Sequence record: PP358550
Reading direction: 5' to 3' (one strand)
Length of the DNA: 64,000 nucleotides
DNA from: Escherichia phage FL04
Shown: positions 2,526 to 52,211 of the stretch, in pieces
Numbering within the stretch: position 1 is the stretch's first letter
Layout: the number at the start of each line of letters is the position of its first letter
Position numbers and translations under genes: made by a program
Notes under the pieces: model-generated
The model's input: only the letters and a program-made list of their open reading frames with translations
The model's database searches: none
Told to the model about the DNA's origin: nothing

Positions 2526-2834
2526 GTGACAACACAAGATATTGTTAATGTGCTTTATATCTGGACTACTGGTGCAATGATCTCGTATCTAGTATTCTGC
2601 TTGTACGCCAGATTCGACAAGGACACCAAAGAGGTCGATACAGGAGCATTTTGTATTGCTGCAATCGTATGGCCTATAACGTGGACCGTGGTTGATATTG
2701 TTATGTGTTATAAGGGAATGAAATGTTTTGGTTTGATGATTGCTGGTAAACCGGAAGCGAAGCCGCGCACGCATAAAGGATTCAGTCCAAAACCAGTCGA
2801 TGACGGTCGATATAAACCGGAAGAAGATTTTTAA
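2526..2834 (+). CDS. hypothetical small membrane protein
   Basis: GTG start after AAGGAGG RBS; two hydrophobic helices in translation. Confidence 0.45.
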   Translation: MTTQDIVNVLYIWTTGAMISYLVFCLYARFDKDTKEVDTGAFCIAAIVWPITWTVVDIVMCYKGMKCFGLMIAGKPEAKPRTHKGFSPKPVDDGRYKPEEDF

Positions 2835-2840
2835 AAACTG

Positions 2841-2869
2841 TTGACATGAAAATGCGGTTATCATATAAT
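2841..2869 (+). promoter_or_regulatory. sigma70-type promoter
   Basis: TTGACA 2841-2846, 17-bp spacer, TATAAT 2864-2869; GCGGT/ACCGC dyad flanks the -10. Confidence 0.55.
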
Positions 2870-2903
2870 GACCGCATCAAATGAACGATGTGAGGATTAT
2901 ATT

Positions 2904-3212
2904 ATGTTTATCTCTTCTGCTACTCCAGTTAAAGTTTACGGCGAAACTGTGTATCTTCCGGCTGGCTATCGCTATGTTATCGTTGACCGTCACGGTGTAG
3001 TGTATGCTTTTAAAGGCCGTCCGGTTGAGATTGATTCTGAATACGGTACATGGGGATATAAAGCCGCATACATGGATATTCCTGATTTGGGAGTACGCTT
3101 AGGAAGATTTGATAACAATGTTAAACCATGCTTGATTAAGTATGCATCCTATGGTAAAACTGTTAAACCAAATAGCGTCGGCTGGATTGATGACGGCGTT
3201 AATGTGAAATAA
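2904..3212 (+). CDS. hypothetical protein
   Basis: GAGGATTATATT-ATG start at 2904. Confidence 0.55.
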   Translation: MFISSATPVKVYGETVYLPAGYRYVIVDRHGVVYAFKGRPVEIDSEYGTWGYKAAYMDIPDLGVRLGRFDNNVKPCLIKYASYGKTVKPNSVGWIDDGVNVK

Positions 3213-26150: not shown

Positions 26151-28829
26151 ATGTATTTTCTGTCATGTGAGCGAGTGGGTGATAAGATCTACGAGCGTTA
26201 TATTGATGATGCTGGACAAGAACAAGAGCGTTACGTTGAATATACGCCAACTTTATTTCATCATGCCGCGCCCGGTATGGTTACGAATTATAAAGATATC
26301 TATGGCAAGCCTTGCATTGCTAAAAAATTCCCATCTATGAACGAGGCCAACAAATGGCGTAAAAAGATGGGAGAAATGGGGCAGGAGGCACTAGGGATGG
26401 ATGATTTTATCATCTCCTATCTGTCCGATACATATAAAGGCGAGATTCGATATGACCGAAATAAAATCCGTGTAGCCTGGGTTGATATTGAGGTCACTGC
26501 ACCGGAATTTCCTAAACCAGAAGAAGCGAAATATCCTATCGATGCTATTACGCATTATGATTCCGTACATGATCGTTTCTTTGTATTTGATTTGAAAGGA
26601 AAAAACGGTGAAATCTGGGAAGCAAGCAAGTCTATTCTTCGACCTGATATTGTAGAGCGCGTTGTTTATAACGTCTATGACACAGAAGATGAATTGCTGT
26701 TAGAATACATCCGATTCTTTGAGGAAAACCGACCCGTTGGTTTCACTGGCTGGAACACAGAAACATTCGATATTCCATATATCATTAAACGTATCAGTAA
26801 TAAGTTCGGAAGTAGAACCGCTAACCGTCTAAGCCCATGCGGTAAGATTAAATCCCGAATCTCGCAGGATGATTTTGGCAACGAGCGTGAAGCATTTACG
26901 ATCATGGGGATCGAAAGCCTTGATTATATTGACCTGTACAAGAAATTTAGCTTTACGACTCAACCAACATATGCATTAGATTATGTTGCTGAATACGAGA
27001 CAGGAATCGGTAAGGTTGATTATGATGGTCCGTTAAAGAAATTGCGTGATGACAACCATCAACTTTACATCGATTATAACATCGGCGACGTTGATCGTGT
27101 GCTGGCGATTGATAAAAAGCGTGGATTTATCGATCTTGTGTATAGTCTATGTTTCTATGCAAAGATTAAATTTAACCATGTTTATAACCCGATGAAAGTA
27201 TGGGATGCTATTATCTTCGGATCTCTGAAAGCAGAGGGTAAAGTAGTACCGGAAAATAAGATACAGCCTAAGCAGACTTATCCTGGCGCATTCGTAAAAG
27301 AACCTGTACCGAATGCTTACCGTTGGATGATGAGCTTTGACTTAACAAGTCTGTACCCATCTATTATTCGACAGGTTAATATTTCTCCTGAAACAATCGC
27401 TGGATCTTTTGATGCTGCACCGATGCACGAGTATATCAATAAAACTGCACCACGTCCGAGTGATGAGTATTCTTGCTCGCCTAACGGATGGATGTATAGA
27501 AAAGATATTCACGGTATCGTACCGATTGAGATTAAAAAGGTATTCGATCAGCGTAAGCAGTACAAAAACATGATGTTGGCATGTGATCGCAATGCTGAAC
27601 TCTGTAAAGCGATTCTACACGATGAAAATCATGTTTATGGGGGAACCATTAGCTATAGCGTTGAAGTGCGTCACGACTTCGATGAAGCGTTTAAATCGAT
27701 GCTTTCTGAATTGAGCAAAGATGCCTTAGAGAAATTGCTGGAAGAATGTAAAGACGAGTCGATCTTGTGCAATACAAACCAGCTTTCTCGAAAAGTTTTG
27801 ATCAACTCCCTTTATGGTGCGTTGGGGAATCCTAAATTCCGTTTTTATGATCTCCGTAACGCTAGTGCGATCACACTGTTCGGTCAGCTTGCAATTCAGT
27901 GGATTGAGCGTAAGATTAACGAATACTTAAACGAGCTTTGCGGAACGACTGATTTTGCATATGTTCGTTATTGTGATACTGACTCCGTTTATGTGCTGGT
28001 TAACAATGTTATTGATAAGGTTGGCGGGGAAGACCGTTTCGACGATACCGAAAAACTTGTTGACTTCCTTGATAATTTCGGTAAACATCGAATGGAACCT
28101 ATTATCGACAAGGGATATCGCGAGTTATGCGAGTATATGAACAACTATGAGCACTTGATGTTTATGGACCGTGAGGCAATTGCTGGTCCTCCGTTGAAAT
28201 CTGCGGGTATCGGTGGATTCTGGACTGGTAAAAAGCGTTATGCTCTTAATGTTTGGGATATGGAAGGAACGCGCTTTGCTGAACCTAAGCTAAAAATCAT
28301 GGGCTTGGAAACGCAACGTAGCTCCACCCCTAAAGCATGTCAGAAATCACTGAAAGAATGTATTCGCCGTATGTTGCAGGAAGGTGAAGAGTCATTGCAG
28401 GAATACTACGGTATTTTTGAGCAAGAATTTAGAAAACTTGACTATCTTGATGTTGCTGCGGTATCATCTGCAAACAACCTACAGAAATACAGCGATTCAA
28501 ACGGGTATCCGATTAAGGGTTGTCCGTATGCGGTTAAGAGTGTATTGTGTTATAATCGTAATGCTCGAAAATTCGGACTAGACCCGATTCGTGAGGGTGA
28601 GAAGGTTATGATTGTACCGCTTAAAGACCGAAATCCGTTTGGAGAAATCTGTTTTGGTTGGTTGTCTGGTACTCGTATTCCACCAGAAATTGAATCAGAG
28701 GTGTTGAAGTGGTTGGACTGGCCTTTGTTGTTTAATAAGACTTTCGTCAAACCACTGGAGAACATTACCACGGCTGCAAAGCTGCAATATGAAAAAGTTG
28801 CTTCACTGACTGACCTGTTTGACATTTAA
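26151..28829 (+). CDS. 43: DNA polymerase (family B) gp43
   Basis: ATG 26151; exonuclease and polymerase motifs (FDIE, SLYPSIIRQVNISPET, YCDTDS) and end-to-end similarity to T4 gp43. Confidence 0.97.
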   Translation: MYFLSCERVGDKIYERYIDDAGQEQERYVEYTPTLFHHAAPGMVTNYKDIYGKPCIAKKFPSMNEANKWRKKMGEMGQEALGMDDFIISYLSDTYKGEIRYDRNKIRVAWVDIEVTAPEFPKPEEAKYPIDAITHYDSVHDRFFVFDLKGKNGEIWEASKSILRPDIVERVVYNVYDTEDELLLEYIRFFEENRPVGFTGWNTETFDIPYIIKRISNKFGSRTANRLSPCGKIKSRISQDDFGNEREAFTIMGIESLDYIDLYKKFSFTTQPTYALDYVAEYETGIGKVDYDGPLKKLRDDNHQLYIDYNIGDVDRVLAIDKKRGFIDLVYSLCFYAKIKFNHVYNPMKVWDAIIFGSLKAEGKVVPENKIQPKQTYPGAFVKEPVPNAYRWMMSFDLTSLYPSIIRQVNISPETIAGSFDAAPMHEYINKTAPRPSDEYSCSPNGWMYRKDIHGIVPIEIKKVFDQRKQYKNMMLACDRNAELCKAILHDENHVYGGTISYSVEVRHDFDEAFKSMLSELSKDALEKLLEECKDESILCNTNQLSRKVLINSLYGALGNPKFRFYDLRNASAITLFGQLAIQWIERKINEYLNELCGTTDFAYVRYCDTDSVYVLVNNVIDKVGGEDRFDDTEKLVDFLDNFGKHRMEPIIDKGYRELCEYMNNYEHLMFMDREAIAGPPLKSAGIGGFWTGKKRYALNVWDMEGTRFAEPKLKIMGLETQRSSTPKACQKSLKECIRRMLQEGEESLQEYYGIFEQEFRKLDYLDVAAVSSANNLQKYSDSNGYPIKGCPYAVKSVLCYNRNARKFGLDPIREGEKVMIVPLKDRNPFGEICFGWLSGTRIPPEIESEVLKWLDWPLLFNKTFVKPLENITTAAKLQYEKVASLTDLFDI

Positions 28830-28846
28830 GATAAAGTGTGTATAAT
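28819..28846 (+). promoter_or_regulatory. sigma70-type promoter (extended -10), inside 3' end of gene 43
   Basis: TTGACA 28819-28824, spacer 16, TGTGTATAAT ending 28846; GC-rich leader hairpin 28847-28873. Confidence 0.5.
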
Positions 28847-28890
28847 GGCGGGTGTTGGGTGACGATACCCGCCAATGTGAGAAATATATT

Positions 28891-29079
28891 ATGAGAGACA
28901 TTGAAAAGATTAAACGTGAACGTGAGGAAGGCATAGAGCACTTCAAGAAAGTTCATGGAAATCACAGCAACGAAGTATTTGTGACGATCGATGTTGATGC
29001 GATGAAAAAGTTAATTCAAGAGCACTACAAAGATCGAATAACAATGAAGCAATTAAAGTATTACGGATTAACTGAATAG
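28891..29079 (+). CDS. hypothetical protein
   Basis: ATG 28891 after GAGAAATATATT; occupies the slot where T4 has imm/42/beta-gt. Confidence 0.5.
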   Translation: MRDIEKIKREREEGIEHFKKVHGNHSNEVFVTIDVDAMKKLIQEHYKDRITMKQLKYYGLTE

Positions 29080-29090
29080 AGGTATTAATA

Positions 29091-30161
29091 ATGTCTGTAC
29101 TGGAAAAACTGAAAAAGAACTCTACCCTGAAAACTACTGCGGTACTGTCTAAATCCAGCTTCTTTAACGAAAAAACAAATACTCGCACTAAGATCCCGAT
29201 GCTGAATATTGCGTTTTCAGGTGATCTTAAAAAGGGCTTTCAATCTGGTCTGATTTTCTTTGCTGGTCCGTCTAAGCACTTTAAATCAAACATGGGATTA
29301 ACTTGTGTTAGTGCATACATGAAACAGAATCCTGATGCGGCGTGTTTGTTCTTTGATTCTGAGTTCGGTATTACACCCGCTTATCTTGAATCTATGGGTG
29401 TAGATCCTGATCGCGTGGTGCATGTTCCAATCAAGAACATCGAAGAACTTAAATTTGAAATCATGAACCAGCTTGAGCAAATTACCCGTGAAGATAAAGT
29501 GATCATCTTTATTGACTCAATCGGTAACTTAGCAAGTAAAAAAGAAGTTGAAGACGCGATTAATGAGAAATCCGCACAGGATATGACGCGAGCTAAAGCA
29601 CTTAAAGGCTTGTTCCGTATGGTGACGCCATATCTGACTATGAATGATATCCCGTGCATCGCTATTAACCACACTTACGAAACGCAAGAAATGTTTAGTA
29701 AGACCGTTATGTCCGGCGGTACGGGCGCGATGTATTCAGCCAATGAAGTTTTCATTATTGGTCGTCGTCAGCAGAAAGAAGGAACCGAAATTACTGGTTA
29801 TGATTTTATCCTGAATGCGGAAAAATCACGAACCGTTAAAGAAAAATCGAAGTTCCCGATTAGCGTAACATTTAGCGGTGGCATCGATCCTTATTCCGGC
29901 TTGCTGGAATTGGCTGTAGAGTTAGGCTGGGTAGTGAAACCGTCAAACGGCTGGTATTCCCGTTCAATCCTAAATACCGAGACCGGAGAGATGGAAACCG
30001 AAGAACGCAAGTTCCGTGCTAAAGAAACCAATAGCATTGAGTTCTGGAAACCACTTCTGACAAACGATAAGTTTAACGAAGCAATCAACGATCATTATAA
30101 GCTGGGGCAAGTGATCAGCGACGAAGCAGTTGACAAAGAAATCGAAGATATGTTAGCATAA
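29091..30161 (+). CDS. uvsX: recombinase UvsX (RecA-like)
   Basis: Strong similarity to T4 UvsX throughout (KIPMLNIAFSG, GPSKHFKSN, INHTYETQEMFSKTVM). Confidence 0.95.
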   Translation: MSVLEKLKKNSTLKTTAVLSKSSFFNEKTNTRTKIPMLNIAFSGDLKKGFQSGLIFFAGPSKHFKSNMGLTCVSAYMKQNPDAACLFFDSEFGITPAYLESMGVDPDRVVHVPIKNIEELKFEIMNQLEQITREDKVIIFIDSIGNLASKKEVEDAINEKSAQDMTRAKALKGLFRMVTPYLTMNDIPCIAINHTYETQEMFSKTVMSGGTGAMYSANEVFIIGRRQQKEGTEITGYDFILNAEKSRTVKEKSKFPISVTFSGGIDPYSGLLELAVELGWVVKPSNGWYSRSILNTETGEMETEERKFRAKETNSIEFWKPLLTNDKFNEAINDHYKLGQVISDEAVDKEIEDMLA

Positions 30162-30534: not shown

Positions 30535-31943
30535 TTAAAACTATCTTTTCACAGTTGATTTACAATGGCGCATTCTTTACGAATGTATGGCCTCACCTTA
30601 AAGCGGACTACTTCACCGAAGACGAAGAAAAACTGATTTATAAGCTGATTAAAAAGCACGTAGACGAATATTCCAATATTCCTACGCCAACAGCATTACA
30701 GATTGCTTTAGACAAGGAGAGAGGCAATCAGACAACATATGAAGGGGCGAAAACTCTTCTTGATTCGCTTGAGAATACACCGGAAGACCTTGATTGGTTA
30801 ATGAAGGAAACCGAAAAATTTATTCGTGACCGTGCTATGTACAATGCAATGTCACGGGCGCTAGAGATTCAGGCGAACGCACAACTACCAAAAGAGAAAC
30901 AGAATAAGAAATTGCCGAGTGAGGGTGCTATTCCTGAGATCATGCAGGAAGCACTATCCATTACGTTTGATTCTGATGTAGGTCATGACTGGTTTAATGA
31001 CTTTGAAAAACGATTCTTGCTATATCAGACTAAGGCGAATAAGATCCCGTTTAAGCTGCCGATGTTGAATAAAATCACGAAAGGAGGGGCGGAAAGAAAA
31101 ACGCTAAATGTGTTGCTTGCTGGTGTAAACGTTGGTAAATCGCTTGGCTTGTGTTCTCTTGCTGCGGATTATATGGAATGTGGTTATGATGTATTGTATA
31201 TCTCAATGGAGATGGCAGAGCATGTAGTAGCAAAACGTATCGACGCAAACTTGCTTGACATTACATTAGATGAATTGGATAATGGTAATGTTTCTTTTGC
31301 GGAATATTCCGCACGTATGAAGCGTGTTAAGAATAAGAAGATCGGAGATCGTCCGGTTGGAAAATTGATGATCAAGCAGTATCCGACTGGTGGCGCGAAC
31401 TCCAATCACTTTGAGGCGTTAATGAATGAATTGCGACTCAAGAAACAGTTTAAACCTGATGTTGTGATTGTTGACTATCTGGGGATTTGCGCATCGTCTC
31501 GCTTGCGTGTATACTCTGAAAATAGTTACACACTAGTTAAGGCGATTGCGGAAGAACTGCGAGGTTTTTTTGTTAAGTGGGATGTTGTTGGTTGGACTGC
31601 GGCACAGACTACCCGTGCTGGTTGGGATGCTTCCGACCTTAACATGAGTGATACCGCTGAATCAGCAGGTCTTCCGGCTACAGCAGATTTTATGTTGGGT
31701 GTTATTGAAACCGAAGACCTGGCTAAAATGGGCGTCCAACTCATGAAGCAGATCAAGTCTCGTTACGGTGATAAGAACTATTATTCACGGTTTAACGTTG
31801 GTGTGAAAAAAGGCAATCAGCGTTGGTATGAAGTACCAAACCAGATCGCAGATCAGGAGAATGCACAAGTTAAACCACAAAGCGCACAGCAAGCCGAGAA
31901 ACGAGAAAAACTCGACGAGCTAGCAAATAACATGACTTTCTAA
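30531..31943 (+). CDS. 41: replicative DNA helicase gp41 (DnaB-like)
   Basis: Walker A GVNVGKSLGLCSLAADY and extensive similarity to T4 gp41. Confidence 0.95.
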   Translation: MIKTIFSQLIYNGAFFTNVWPHLKADYFTEDEEKLIYKLIKKHVDEYSNIPTPTALQIALDKERGNQTTYEGAKTLLDSLENTPEDLDWLMKETEKFIRDRAMYNAMSRALEIQANAQLPKEKQNKKLPSEGAIPEIMQEALSITFDSDVGHDWFNDFEKRFLLYQTKANKIPFKLPMLNKITKGGAERKTLNVLLAGVNVGKSLGLCSLAADYMECGYDVLYISMEMAEHVVAKRIDANLLDITLDELDNGNVSFAEYSARMKRVKNKKIGDRPVGKLMIKQYPTGGANSNHFEALMNELRLKKQFKPDVVIVDYLGICASSRLRVYSENSYTLVKAIAEELRGFFVKWDVVGWTAAQTTRAGWDASDLNMSDTAESAGLPATADFMLGVIETEDLAKMGVQLMKQIKSRYGDKNYYSRFNVGVKKGNQRWYEVPNQIADQENAQVKPQSAQQAEKREKLDELANNMTF

Positions 31944-49665: not shown

Positions 49666-49872
49666 ATGAAAGTACGTTGCATTGAAACCGATCACATCAA
49701 TTATAGCTTTGGTGTCGGGTGTGATTATGATGTTGATGTATTCACGGACAATAGCGGAAACACATTTGATGTAGTTCATGGTGACTATATTTGGTTTTAC
49801 TTTGACAAACAACAACTTACTGCAACCAAACGAAACGGTGATCCGGTAGCAAAATTTGAAATAATCGAATAA
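49666..49872 (+). CDS. hypothetical protein
   Basis: ATG 49666 after AAAGGAGATTCAAAA. Confidence 0.5.
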   Translation: MKVRCIETDHINYSFGVGCDYDVDVFTDNSGNTFDVVHGDYIWFYFDKQQLTATKRNGDPVAKFEIIE

Positions 49873-49878
49873 AATCTA

Positions 49879-49907
49879 TTGACACTGAATAATGGGAGTA
49901 GTAATAT
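49879..49907 (+). promoter_or_regulatory. sigma70-type promoter with GGGAGTA/TACTCCC dyad
   Basis: TTGACA 49879-49884, spacer 17, TAATAT 49902-49907; palindrome 49894-49913. Confidence 0.6.
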
Positions 49908-49938
49908 ACTCCCATTCCAAACAAAAGGAGAATCAAAG

Positions 49939-50211
49939 ATGAGCAACGAAAACAGCAAAGTGTTAGCAATTGCAAATAAAGTAGGTTACTGGAAATGCTG
50001 GGATGATATGGAGAAATTAGGCGGTCGCTATCTCGATAACTTAGAGTTGCATTATTGCCAAGCGCGTAATGCAGAAGTTGCTGGAGTAGCAATTGAAGAT
50101 ATCCCGTCTAAGGTCTTCGGATTCTCTAAAGATGATACTCTAGAATATGTTTTCAAGGCTGTTATGGATCAAGCATGGGAAGACGCAGAGACACGCGCTC
50201 TTGATTGGTGA
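49939..50211 (+). CDS. hypothetical protein
   Basis: ATG 49939 after AAAGGAGAATCAAAG. Confidence 0.5.
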   Translation: MSNENSKVLAIANKVGYWKCWDDMEKLGGRYLDNLELHYCQARNAEVAGVAIEDIPSKVFGFSKDDTLEYVFKAVMDQAWEDAETRALDW

Positions 50212-50215
50212 TAAT

Positions 50216-50386
50216 ATGAACTGGTATAAAATTTGGAAAAATCAGGTGGAGGCTTATCTAGGGTATAAGCCCACCGACAAAGAATTACTTGATGCAATGT
50301 ATGAAGACGGACTAAATCCGAAAGTAGCCGCGCAAGAATACGCGGAATGGGTGAAGGTCGAAGATAACCTAAAGAGGAAACTATGA
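50216..50386 (+). CDS. hypothetical small protein
   Basis: ATG 50216; track ORF 50147 overlaps upstream gene. Confidence 0.4.
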   Translation: MNWYKIWKNQVEAYLGYKPTDKELLDAMYEDGLNPKVAAQEYAEWVKVEDNLKRKL

Positions 50387-50607
50387 AGAAAATGATTGCG
50401 ATTGCTTTGTTGGCGAGCGCATGTACTGTAAATGCTAACACCGCAGCGATGGTCGCGGCTGTAACTGCCGCAAATGCTTCCGTTATGGCATCGCAAGAGG
50501 CAGCACGCCAGCAAGCACAACAAGAAGCCAAGCGAAAAGCACATGAGGCGACGAAAAATTTTCACGAAAATAACAAAAAACTAGTTGACGCCAAAGGTCA
50601 TCGGTAG
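50383..50607 (+). CDS. small secreted protein, probable lipoprotein
   Basis: N-terminal signal peptide MKKMIAIALLASAC with lipobox-like ASAC, then Ala/Gln-rich mature part. Confidence 0.5.
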   Translation: MKKMIAIALLASACTVNANTAAMVAAVTAANASVMASQEAARQQAQQEAKRKAHEATKNFHENNKKLVDAKGHR

Positions 50608-50613
50608 TATTAT
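50585..50613 (+). promoter_or_regulatory. sigma70-type promoter with degenerate dyad
   Basis: TTGACG 50585-50590, spacer 17, TATTAT 50608-50613; right arm TACTCCC 50613-50619. Confidence 0.5.
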
Positions 50614-50647
50614 ACTCCCATACCGAAACGAACTGGAGGAAATAAAA

Positions 50648-50890
50648 ATGGTTAAAGTGAATGTTATCGAAGTTGCACTGTACGACGCTGGGATCTTCCT
50701 GAATGAAAAAGAAGCTGCCGTGCTCGATGAACTGAAAACTGTTTTTGTTCCTGTAGTCGAAGACGATGAAGCAATCAAAATCGCTTCTCGTAAACTGTCC
50801 CGCGAAGCATTCGACATGATTGATCCGGTTTTCAAAGTTATGCACGAATGCGCGGTTATGATGACCGAAGAAGAAGCGAAAAATTTCTAA
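50648..50890 (+). CDS. hypothetical acidic protein
   Basis: ATG 50648 after GGAGGAAATAAAA. Confidence 0.5.
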   Translation: MVKVNVIEVALYDAGIFLNEKEAAVLDELKTVFVPVVEDDEAIKIASRKLSREAFDMIDPVFKVMHECAVMMTEEEAKNF

Positions 50891-50897
50891 AAACTAG

Positions 50898-50926
50898 TTG
50901 ACGTAAAGATAAGGGAGTAGTAATAT
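50898..50926 (+). promoter_or_regulatory. sigma70-type promoter with GGGAGTA/TACTCCC dyad
   Basis: TTGACG 50898-50903, spacer 17, TAATAT 50921-50926; palindrome 50913-50932. Confidence 0.6.
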
Positions 50927-50955
50927 ACTCCCATACCAAACGAAAGGAGAATCAC

Positions 50956-51168
50956 ATGAAATCTATTGAGCAAGTAGTGACTGAATTTATGAGCTACGAA
51001 GGAAACCGCATCTTTGGACGTTCTCAAGTTCGCGAGATCGTAGAAGAAGTTGCGGGAGAGTTTGCGGAATCTGGTCACGTTATCACGCAAGAACGTAAAG
51101 AAGAAGCAGTAAGCCAGATCATGGCTATGCAGAAAATGCGTATTAATGCACGAGCGGGTAAAAATTAA
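50956..51168 (+). CDS. hypothetical protein
   Basis: AAAGGAGAATCAC-ATG. Confidence 0.5.
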   Translation: MKSIEQVVTEFMSYEGNRIFGRSQVREIVEEVAGEFAESGHVITQERKEEAVSQIMAMQKMRINARAGKN

Positions 51169-51178
51169 AAAATAGTTG

Positions 51179-51207
51179 TTGACAGGGGATCGCCGATCCC
51201 CTATAAT
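51179..51207 (+). promoter_or_regulatory. sigma70-type promoter with GGGGATCGCCGATCCCC palindrome as spacer
   Basis: TTGACA 51179-51184, spacer 17, TATAAT 51202-51207; two GATC sites. Confidence 0.6.
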
Positions 51208-51238
51208 GAACTCATCAAGACAACGAAGGAGAATCAAA

Positions 51239-51394
51239 ATGAAACATACTCACAAATTAATGGTTAAATTTGAAGGCGCTAAGGGATATGAACGTTACGG
51301 TGTATTCTTCTCTGAGGATGATGCATGGGATGCTGGTTTGGCGACGTTCGCCGAGCACAACAACATTGAAGACTTTACTGTAGAAGAAATTTAA
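51239..51394 (+). CDS. hypothetical small protein
   Basis: ATG 51239 after AAGGAGAATCAAA; track ORF start 51176 runs through promoter. Confidence 0.45.
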   Translation: MKHTHKLMVKFEGAKGYERYGVFFSEDDAWDAGLATFAEHNNIEDFTVEEI

Positions 51395-51401
51395 AAAGTA
51401 T

Positions 51402-51430
51402 TTGACATCGGATTAAGGGAGTAGTAAGAT
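51402..51430 (+). promoter_or_regulatory. sigma70-type promoter with GGGAGTA/TACTCCC dyad
   Basis: TTGACA 51402-51407, spacer 17, TAAGAT 51425-51430; palindrome 51417-51436. Confidence 0.6.
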
Positions 51431-51464
51431 ACTCCCATCAAGACAAAACACTGAGGAATATATT

Positions 51465-52211
51465 ATGAAAAACATTATCGCTGCTATCGTTCTTTCTGCT
51501 ACTGCTTTCGGTGCTAACGCTGCGTCCTTTGATTGCGCTAAAGCTACTACCAAATCAGAGAAGTTTATTTGTGCTAATGAGTCTATCTCCGCACTGGACT
51601 CTAAACTTCATGAGGTGTATGTTAAGGCTGTTAAGATTGATCCGTCTCTGAAACAAGAGCAACGAAACTGGAATAAAACTGTTCGTGATACAATGATCAA
51701 TATCGGGCAGATTCAGCCACTGGAGGCTGTATATAACGCTCAAATCCAAAACTTGATGAATGTATTACCTAAAGAAGAAAGCGATTCAGAGACTTCTGCG
51801 AAGGTTGAAGAAGAACAACCGAAACAGGAAGCAAAAGTGGTAGAAGAACCGAAGGTCGAAACTTTTACCTATCAATGCACCGTTCGTTATGAGTGGAGTA
51901 TGAAAGATGGAATTTCCACAAAAATTAAAGAGGCTCCACTGTATGCAAAATATGGAAACCAGCCAGGGGATCTTAAAGTAACCATTAAAAATGGGAAGAT
52001 GGTTGATTTTGTATACATTGATGAATACAACGTACACAAAGCAAACGTACAAGAAACCGTTATGACTAAAGGCGGGTTTTATAAGAATGTTGGCAAGAAA
52101 GATCTATATGAATACTCCGTTTTCGAACCAAACGACGGAACTATTCGATTTGAAAAACGTCATCCTACATTCGGTGGCGCAATTGATGTAGATCAATACG
52201 TTTGCAAGTAA
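51465..52211 (+). CDS. secreted (periplasmic) protein with possible LprI/DUF1311-like N-terminal domain
   Basis: Signal peptide MKNIIAAIVLSATAFGANA; then C..A.T..E.FIC...S...LD..L..VY pattern; GAGGAATATATT-ATG. Confidence 0.6.
   Translation: MKNIIAAIVLSATAFGANAASFDCAKATTKSEKFICANESISALDSKLHEVYVKAVKIDPSLKQEQRNWNKTVRDTMINIGQIQPLEAVYNAQIQNLMNVLPKEESDSETSAKVEEEQPKQEAKVVEEPKVETFTYQCTVRYEWSMKDGISTKIKEAPLYAKYGNQPGDLKVTIKNGKMVDFVYIDEYNVHKANVQETVMTKGGFYKNVGKKDLYEYSVFEPNDGTIRFEKRHPTFGGAIDVDQYVCK

Follow-up and report, generated by a model that had tools for sequence, protein, structure and literature searches.

A small accessory early gene of Krischvirus phages encodes a product that is most likely a secreted periplasmic helix and not a lipoprotein

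On balance, we lean toward the view that a 74-codon open reading frame (ORF) in Escherichia phage FL04 is an accessory early gene of Krischvirus, and that its product is exported, cleaved by signal peptidase I (SPI), and left in the periplasm as a single-helix peptide that acts at the level of the cell envelope. The gene resides in a 64-kb stretch of DNA (hereafter the window) from a Krischvirus, an RB49-like T4-type coliphage. An initial annotation had given the correct coordinates (50383-50607, plus strand) and protein sequence for this ORF, and had classed it as a small early gene, which agrees with the sigma-70 promoter at 49879 that heads its transcription unit. The same annotation proposed that the product is a lipoprotein, and it is on this point that our interpretation departs from it. 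Judged from the conservation patterns described below, the protein is most likely an SPI-processed periplasmic helix of approximately 48 to 56 amino acids rather than a lipoprotein.

The 2-kb region around the candidate gene is shared at 90-99% identity with 58 phage records, which are Krischvirus without exception. Gene order at the locus runs from rIIB through several small ORFs to the gp52 topoisomerase subunit gene, and then through many small ORFs to the holin gene t on the opposite strand. The features that define the candidate gene and its immediate surroundings are the following.

49879-49907, plus strand: sigma-70 early promoter within a PeSL-type cassette (TTGACA-17-TAATAT), located by promoter scan and cassette alignment; drives a unit of three genes, of which the candidate is the last
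49939-50211, plus strand: first gene of the unit (90 aa, phrog_7287)
50216-50386, plus strand: second gene of the unit (56 aa, phrog_8655); its TGA stop overlaps the candidate ATG (ATGA)
50373-50378, plus strand: Shine-Dalgarno sequence AGAGGA, read from the sequence; GAGG lies 5 nt upstream of the candidate ATG
50383-50607, plus strand: candidate coding sequence, with ATG at 50383 and TAG at 50605-50607; 74 aa when the read-through tail is counted; MKKMIAIALLASACTVNANTAAMVAAVTAANASVMASQEAARQQAQQEAKRKAHEATKNFHENNKKLVDAKGHR
50575-50580, plus strand: run of six A residues; the common allele has five, which brings the cassette TAG into frame and gives a 66-aa protein
50581-50607, plus strand: read-through tail LVDAKGHR and its stop, whose codons belong to the -35 hexamer and spacer of the downstream promoter; other phages have a different tail here or none
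50585-50613, plus strand: downstream sigma-70 promoter cassette (TTGACG-17-TATTAT), which serves the next gene
50648-50890, plus strand: next gene (80 aa), absent along with the candidate from reference RB49

Counting from the promoter at 49879, the candidate is the third cistron and, judging from this promoter sequence, is an early gene controlled by host sigma-70. Host sigma-70 RNA polymerase would therefore be expected to transcribe it after infection as the last member of a small operon, and the ATGA overlap suggests that its translation may be coupled to that of the 56-aa gene. The protein encoded in the window is identical to the phage FL04 protein WWP71632.1 (P0008).

We regard the candidate as a real gene because its dN/dS value is low in its own frame and exceeds 1 in the shifted frames, and because a Shine-Dalgarno sequence and an ATGA overlap precede it. 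Specifically, comparison with the most divergent homolog (83% amino acid identity) by the Nei-Gojobori method yields a dN/dS of 0.136, with 17 synonymous and 11 non-synonymous changes, whereas the shifted frames give values of 1.3-5.4 in the same comparison. The only other low value (0.19) comes from the antiparallel frame in codon register, and that frame contains a stop. Across all pairs of homologs the candidate has dN/dS values of 0.07-0.18, and the ORF is intact in 27 of 27 full-length copies. The candidate is a genuine gene under purifying selection.

Antisense ORFs also cover this locus, including reading frames of 120 and 103 aa in the window and one of 227 aa in L007/L008. We considered these as possible genes and have instead treated them as mechanical, because they are not conserved as ORFs and they run opposite to the promoters and Shine-Dalgarno sites, all of which point the same way.

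The region is hyperplastic, in that its small genes are parted by mobile promoter cassettes. A promoter scan places sigma-70 cassettes between the small ORFs at 49879, 50585, 50898, 51179 and 51402, and their alignment reveals four common elements: an AT-rich AAAAAnTAG sequence, a TTGAC hexamer, a stem-loop spanning the -10 element (GGGAGTAGTAATATACTCCC), and a Shine-Dalgarno site. By these shared sequence features, the repeated cassettes are PeSL elements of the RB49/phi1 type, whose promoter and terminator activities have been demonstrated experimentally (PMC2839356).

One consequence of this organization is visible at the 3′ end of the gene, which, as initially annotated, overlaps a downstream promoter: the last 23 nt of the coding sequence lie within the cassette at 50585-50613. 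The gene of most relatives terminates as AAT AAC AAA AAC TAG directly before TTGACG, and its stop is the cassette-borne TAG just upstream of the -35 element. DNA comparison of the A-run among the window, L001, L002 and L004-L008 reveals that FL04 carries six A residues instead of five, and therefore its frame skips the cassette TAG and ends at the TAG beside the -10 element. Elsewhere in the family the C-terminal tails read NKN, NKK or TKITKN before the stop, or K-K-[A/L/E/V]-VDAKGHR. Because these tails vary between phages, we conclude that the last eight residues of the 74-aa form do not belong to the functional protein.

The remaining codons appear to specify three segments.

50383-50436, plus strand: predicted Sec signal peptide, codons 1-18, with n-region MKK, h-region MIAIALLASA and c-region CTVNA; SPI is predicted to cut after VNA18
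50413-50424, plus strand: lipobox-like A-S-A-C at codons 11-14, which is atypical and varies among relatives
50437-50580, plus strand: mature core, codons 19-66; invariant Ala-rich NTAAMVAAVTAANASV, then a polar Gln/Glu/Lys segment with a net basic charge

An N-terminal export signal had been proposed for this protein, and the layout MKK, MIAIALLASA, VNA/NT (the slash marks the predicted cut) bears this out at the level of sequence. Our assignment of export and of the cleavage site is based on rules of thumb and on conservation. By rule, the N-terminus has what Sec export and SPI cleavage call for, namely a basic n-region, an h-region within the range of about 7-15 residues (mean Kyte-Doolittle hydropathy of 2.49 over 10 residues), and small or aliphatic residues at -3 and -1. 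A valine at -3 is compatible with the tolerance of LepB for aliphatic residues at this position, as in the I-E-A site of T4 RI (PMC8385771). At 18 residues the signal peptide is rather short. As for conservation, the sequence VNA/NT (V16-N17-A18/N19-T20) is unchanged in all 24 distinct sequences of the family. The product would thus carry a short Sec-type signal peptide that directs export, and cleavage after Ala18 would free a Cys-free, Pro-free, net-basic peptide into the periplasm, with a predicted length of 48 aa for the 66-aa allele and 56 aa for the FL04 allele.

The competing explanation that survives best, though we consider it doubtful, is that the product of the ASAC allele really is a lipoprotein of the outer membrane. 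According to this proposal, Lgt would lipidate Cys14, LspA would cut before it, and Thr at +2 would route the protein to the outer membrane, where it could mask a receptor or block entry in the manner of Llp and Cor. The ASAC motif at codons 11-14 and the Ala/Gln-rich segment are indeed present as the initial annotation described; A-S-A precedes Cys14 after an MKK n-region and a hydrophobic stretch, ASAC is retained in 17 of the 24 distinct sequences, and the protein is close in size to Llp and Cor. The candidate passes a permissive PROSITE-style pattern at that pattern's minimum length, but Cys14 lies outside positions 15-35, where the PROSITE lipoprotein rule itself requires the Cys. The permissive pattern is rare, being matched by just 3 of the 705 ATG-initiated ORFs of at least 40 aa in the window, among which the candidate alone has a plausible gene context. 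Because a Cys preceded by small residues fits this permissive pattern, the ASAC allele may be lipidated in vivo, and the other alleles cannot be. Pfam lipid-attachment-site models were also tried as a lipobox test and are uninformative, because they miss the positive controls Lpp and the RB49 o-spanin as well.

Against this explanation stand the details of the motif. Lipoboxes are defined as [LVI] at -3, [ASTVI] at -2, [GAS] at -1 and an invariant Cys at +1, in signal peptides that average 16-26 residues (PMC4728403, PMC8689077). In FL04, Ala11 at -3 falls outside [LVI] and the DOLOP-style pattern fails, and only 13 residues precede Cys14; Ala13 at -1 is within [GAS], and is Val in three natural alleles. 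Furthermore, although the lipobox Cys is invariant by definition, 4 of the 24 distinct sequences have VS[ST]F, with no Cys, and another 3 have ASVC, with Val at -1. These are not damaged genes. An ASVC-type allele (P0009) is present on 9 contigs, and the alleles that lack Cys occur as intact ORFs, with the same synteny from rIIB through gp52 to the holin gene, on several independent contigs, including a 175-kb one. Counting against our own interpretation, these Cys-less alleles form a single clade, 83% identical to the FL04 protein.

The distribution of substitutions is likewise informative. Residues 11-15 are the least conserved and fastest-evolving part of the protein, accounting for 4 of the 11 replacements relative to the divergent lineage, whereas residues 16-34 have accumulated 8 synonymous and 0 non-synonymous changes in the same comparison. 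A lipoprotein is expected to have a fixed Cys and a freely varying tether, and in sequence the candidate exhibits the opposite, with a rapidly evolving supposed lipobox and an invariant supposed tether (VNANTAAM...). This pattern is as expected if residues 11-15 are the tolerant end of an h-region and VNA/ is an SPI site. Because the lipobox-like motif is not conserved, the product most likely reaches the periplasm by ordinary secretion, and because VNA/NT is conserved and Cys14 is not, export followed by cleavage after Ala18 is its most likely fate.

The more specific suggestion that the protein belongs with the superinfection-exclusion lipoproteins Cor and Llp also fares poorly. T5 Llp and phi80/N15 Cor resemble the candidate in size class, in early or accessory status and in envelope location, which for the candidate is a prediction. 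However, Llp and Cor are genuine lipoproteins whose target is FhuA, whereas the candidate has an atypical and unconserved lipobox and exhibits no similarity to any Pfam or PHROG family. RB49-like phages use OmpA and O-antigens as receptors, and FhuA is not mentioned among them (PMC9569957).

If the signal peptide is removed as predicted, the mature part that remains has a composition of 27-29% Ala and 9-10% Gln, with no Pro, no Cys, and a net charge of +3 to +4. AlphaFold2 returns one continuous helix for residues 2-72 (pLDDT 77, pTM 0.34) from an alignment of only five near-identical sequences, and the mature peptide is accordingly predicted by this model to be a single alpha-helix. Its Ala-rich N-terminal half is under very strong purifying selection. 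Along this helix, ten small residues recur at i+4 without a break (A21, A25, A29, S33, S37, A41, A45, A49, A53 and T57). A run of this kind is matched by 1 of 20,000 composition-preserving shuffles, in a test that was picked after the pattern had been seen. The stripe is kept in every full-length allele, with changes there limited to A21S and A41T, and a natural deletion of four codons preserves its register. This sequence pattern suggests that the stripe packs tightly against a second helix, either that of another copy of the peptide or that of a target.

Small-residue stripes are also compatible with a second alternative, an unlikely one in our estimation, in which the signal peptide remains uncleaved or residues 4-36 associate with the membrane, and the product is a small inner-membrane protein, for instance one that modulates the holin or membrane integrity. 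AxxxA-type motifs are typical of membrane helix packing, residues 20-36 are invariant and moderately hydrophobic (mean Kyte-Doolittle hydropathy of 1.48), and the GenBank record of phage W115 names the protein a 'putative membrane protein'. Transmembrane-level hydrophobicity, however, is absent from every 19-residue window of the candidate: the maximum Kyte-Doolittle value is 1.51, and simple Hessa sums are at least +4 kcal/mol. In addition, Asn17, Asn19 and Asn31 break the hydrophobic stretch, the -3/-1 cleavage site just past the h-region is well formed and never varies, and RB49 already has rI and the t holin. The h-region, being short and strongly hydrophobic, fits a cleavable signal better than it fits an anchor.

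We next consider how the gene is distributed. Presence or absence was scored over the 58 Krischvirus records that have gp52 at 95% identity or more, and the full gene is present in 27 of these, a remnant comprising only the 3′ portion in 4, and no trace in the other 27. The candidate is thus an accessory gene within Krischvirus, and KMB43 is one of the phages that carry it besides FL04. Reference RB49 has neither the candidate nor the next gene, and in this phage the stop codon of the upstream gene adjoins the promoter cassette that leads into the gene after next. In phage 011D4, an in-frame internal deletion has fused the upstream gene to the last 20 codons of the candidate. This history of gain and loss fits the pattern of PeSL-mediated shuffling described by Arbiol et al. 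(PMC2839356). Within Krischvirus the candidate has the features of a PeSL-bounded ORFan, with flanking cassettes, presence/absence junctions that fall at cassettes, and no homologs elsewhere.

The last of these features was established with a range of searches. The candidate protein has no match in Pfam (no meaningful family at E ≤ 1) or PHROGs (E ≤ 0.1), searches of NCBIfam and PADLOC give nothing meaningful, and a profile compared with PDB sequences gives nothing below E = 0.7. A word-indexed search of 5.8 billion proteins recovers four clusters, each of which is the candidate protein itself, and an exhaustive profile search of 1.84 billion representatives recovers the family plus one repeat-protein artefact. 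The latter (P0022) is a 651-aa tandem-repeat protein that we rejected as a homolog because its score builds up from seven low-complexity matches, each of them weak. IMG/VR scans, both by protein and by a degenerate DNA pattern of the invariant core, yield nothing usable, and a metagenome scan adds just two further near-identical copies. The protein is restricted to Krischvirus, with no relatives beyond the genus.

A gene with this distribution might be functionless cargo of a mobile promoter cassette that persists by hitch-hiking. Its roughly 50:50 presence and absence, the cassette junctions, the internal deletion in some phages, its ORFan status and its freely frameshifted C-terminus could all be read in this way. 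Cargo is nevertheless quite improbable given the strong purifying selection noted above, which is evident in all pairs and in the run of codons 16-34, given the intact ORF in every full-length copy, and given the survival of the i+4 stripe through a four-codon deletion.

Least credible of all is the proposal that the candidate is an Rz1-like o-spanin of the lysis system. Nothing favors it except that the protein is small and has a Cys behind its hydrophobic N-terminus, and it is refuted because RB49 carries a canonical pseT.3/pseT.2 pair elsewhere; moreover, the candidate has an early promoter, does not occur in about half of Krischvirus, and has no Pro, no Cys past residue 14 and no neighboring i-spanin. 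The two RB49 spanin genes are adjacent at 128.6-129.4 kb, about 30 kb from the candidate locus. The pseT.3 product is the i-spanin, with its transmembrane domain in an N-terminal extension of the annotated ORF, and the pseT.2 product is the o-spanin, with a canonical ALSSC (LSSC) lipobox, additional Cys residues and a mature domain rich in Pro. The genes beside the candidate, in keeping with the initial remark that no i-spanin is evident nearby, encode small soluble ORFans on early promoters.

Among characterized phage proteins, T4 Spackle (Sp, gp61.3), a periplasmic inhibitor of the gp5 tail lysozyme, offers an instructive comparison with the secreted peptide that we favor. Both are small early proteins of T4-type phages that begin with MKK, and both are non-essential, the candidate being dispensable for growth. 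Both have a Sec signal peptide in which a lipobox-like Cys precedes a cleavage site of the AxA type (...FALASCAAQPAMA/G in Sp), and an all-helical mature part of roughly 50-75 aa, the signal peptide and the helix being predictions in the case of the candidate. Importantly, the Spackle signal peptide (MKKFIFATIFALASCAAQPAMA/G) contains a lipobox-like LASC, yet its authors report a soluble periplasmic protein of 75 aa. LASC is an even better lipobox-like motif than that of the candidate, and by analogy Spackle offers a precedent for a non-lipoprotein interpretation. The two proteins differ in other respects. The Pfam model T4_Spackle (PF25676) matches Sp at 1.6e-44 (150.9 bits) and has no match to the candidate at E ≤ 10. 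Moreover, Sp is a compact, disulfide-bonded helical bundle, whereas the mature candidate has no Cys and is predicted to form one long helix.

Two other helical envelope proteins merit comparison. T4 RI antiholin is a small periplasmic helical protein with a cleavable signal peptide and an aliphatic residue at -3 (I-E-A/; PMC8385771), features that are predicted for the candidate as well. Unlike rI, which occupies a conserved position beside tk, the candidate is optional, and the two proteins have no similarity. We also considered whether an antiholin role might be a vacant niche for the candidate, and rejected this idea because RB49 already has an rI gene (RB49p086). The Braun lipoprotein Lpp of E. 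coli, an alanine-zipper helix, is like the candidate in its length, its helical mature part and its regular stripe of small residues. However, BLASTP gives no alignment between the two at E ≤ 100, the Pfam models LPP and Alanine_zipper match Lpp and not the candidate, the candidate's small-residue period is 4 instead of the heptad (7) of Lpp, and a C-terminal Lys is not conserved in the candidate family. We set aside the idea of an Lpp mimic on the strength of the missing BLASTP and Pfam similarity and the unconserved Lys.

What, then, might the peptide do? For an early secreted accessory peptide of a T4-type phage, our best guess is an envelope-level conflict with other phages or with the host, either superinfection exclusion or interference with an envelope component; a block of superinfecting phages like that of Spackle or Imm would be one example. 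That the function is superinfection exclusion specifically is a guess to which we assign a rather low likelihood. Also unlikely in its full form is a scenario in which the mature product is a novel non-lipidated, secreted envelope effector, a single helix of about 50 residues whose invariant Ala-rich half and i+4 stripe would together zip onto a periplasmic or membrane target helix, and which would serve Krischvirus as a superinfection-exclusion or anti-defence factor. Possible targets for such a zipper include the entry machinery of an incoming phage, the OmpA/peptidoglycan tether, and a host defence located in the envelope.

Annotations of RB49 name neither sp nor imm. A tblastn search of the window and the complete RB49 genome, with T4 Sp, Imm and RI as queries, produced no credible match, the best being inside gene 41 at E = 0.069. 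This search is weak evidence for the absence of Sp and Imm, because it missed the annotated rI of RB49 as well.

A close parallel for the gene, as distinct from the protein, is found in the ORFans that PeSLs flank in RB49 and phi1 (Arbiol et al., 2010; PMC2839356). As described in the portions of that report that deal with them, these are likewise small ORFans in a hyperplastic region, bounded by promoter cassettes, present in some genomes and absent from others with junctions at the cassettes, and preceded by genes that take their stop codon from a cassette. The candidate differs from them in that it is missing from the reference RB49 sequence and is not discussed in those portions of the report. 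It is a previously unseen, genus-restricted case of a familiar class, that of small PeSL-flanked early ORFans with an export signal.

These findings have several implications for the annotation and biology of such phages. First, a lipobox-like Cys in a short phage signal peptide is insufficient for a lipoprotein call, given that T4 Spackle has the same layout. Second, in PeSL-rich regions a promoter cassette may supply the final codons of a gene together with its stop, and C-terminal tails can therefore be artefacts of single-base slippage. Third, should the candidate prove to be an envelope effector that is secreted, the few phage proteins known to act early in the periplasm (Sp, RI, Imm, Llp and Cor) would gain a new sequence family, and the candidate would provide a handle on how RB49-like phages exclude competitors. 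Some RB49-like phages are in therapeutic use. About half of the natural isolates do not have the gene, and these offer ready-made comparisons.

Along the predicted single helix of the 74-aa early ORF (window 50383-50607, + strand), ten small residues follow one another at i+4 spacing with no break, an arrangement that was reached in 1 of 20,000 shuffles. All full-length alleles keep this stripe, and a natural 4-codon deletion leaves it in register.

Window 50443-50553: i+4 small-residue stripe, codons 21-57 of the 74-aa ORF
Window 49839-51470: five PeSL-type (promoter/stem-loop) cassettes, at 49879, 50585, 50898, 51179 and 51402
Phage 011D4 record 1345-1563: 72-aa fusion ORF, in-frame deletion
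Metagenome copies L007 1900-2583 and L008 1836-2519, - strand: 227-aa antisense ORF

In phage 011D4, the in-frame deletion has fused the 56-aa gene that precedes the 74-aa ORF with the final 20 codons of the latter, yielding a chimera that ends in ...EATKNFHENNKKAVDAKGHR; phiS, PHB13 and E26 carry remnants that resemble this fusion. Within a cassette, the conserved ‘AAAAACTAGTTGAC’ provides the stop codon for whichever gene lies before that cassette. These cassettes are dense, with five in 1.6 kb, and the one 3′ of the 74-aa ORF has a degenerate stem-loop arm (GGTAGTA versus GGGAGTA). The antisense ORF covers the 74-aa ORF and its neighbours in both metagenome copies. In the window it is fragmented, and coding-strand codon usage most likely accounts for it as a side effect.

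T4 record 2759-3052: sp gene (Spackle)
RB49 record 28606-29420: pseT.2 and pseT.3
Window 31596-31790, + strand: tblastn match of T4 Spackle, gene 41 helicase region
Relative L004 7943-8191: 82-aa ORF adjoining the holin gene (precomputed annotation)

The signal peptide of T4 Spackle contains L-A-S-C, a canonical-looking lipobox, seven residues before the point where cleavage releases a 75-aa mature periplasmic protein, and thus a lipobox-like Cys is not diagnostic in a short phage signal peptide. For the RB49 spanin genes, the reference start of pseT.3 seems too far downstream, because the transmembrane segment MSKLIYIVIISVLLGVGG sits in an in-frame extension upstream of it, and that of pseT.2 seems too far upstream, because the lipoprotein signal begins internally at MFKKAHKNF...ALSSC. 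The Spackle match within the helicase region reaches 27% across 74 aa, with E = 0.069 against a tiny database; it is weak and probably due to chance. Separately, the 82-aa ORF has a weak precomputed Pfam match to Tad2-like (anti-Thoeris) proteins, and its window counterpart is expected a few kb beyond the 3′ end of the 74-aa ORF.

Window 51465-52211, + strand: 248-aa LprI-domain protein, signal peptide and Pfam match

This protein, kept across the genus Krischvirus (RB49p262 in RB49), has an N-terminal signal peptide of typical form, MKNIIAAIVLSATAFGANA|AS, and its Pfam LprI lysozyme-inhibitor domain, at 24.1 bits, exceeds the gathering score (22). For a Spackle-like role, that is, blocking the tail lysozyme of an incoming phage, it would, if secreted, lysozyme-inhibitor-like and early, make a more direct candidate than the 74-aa ORF.
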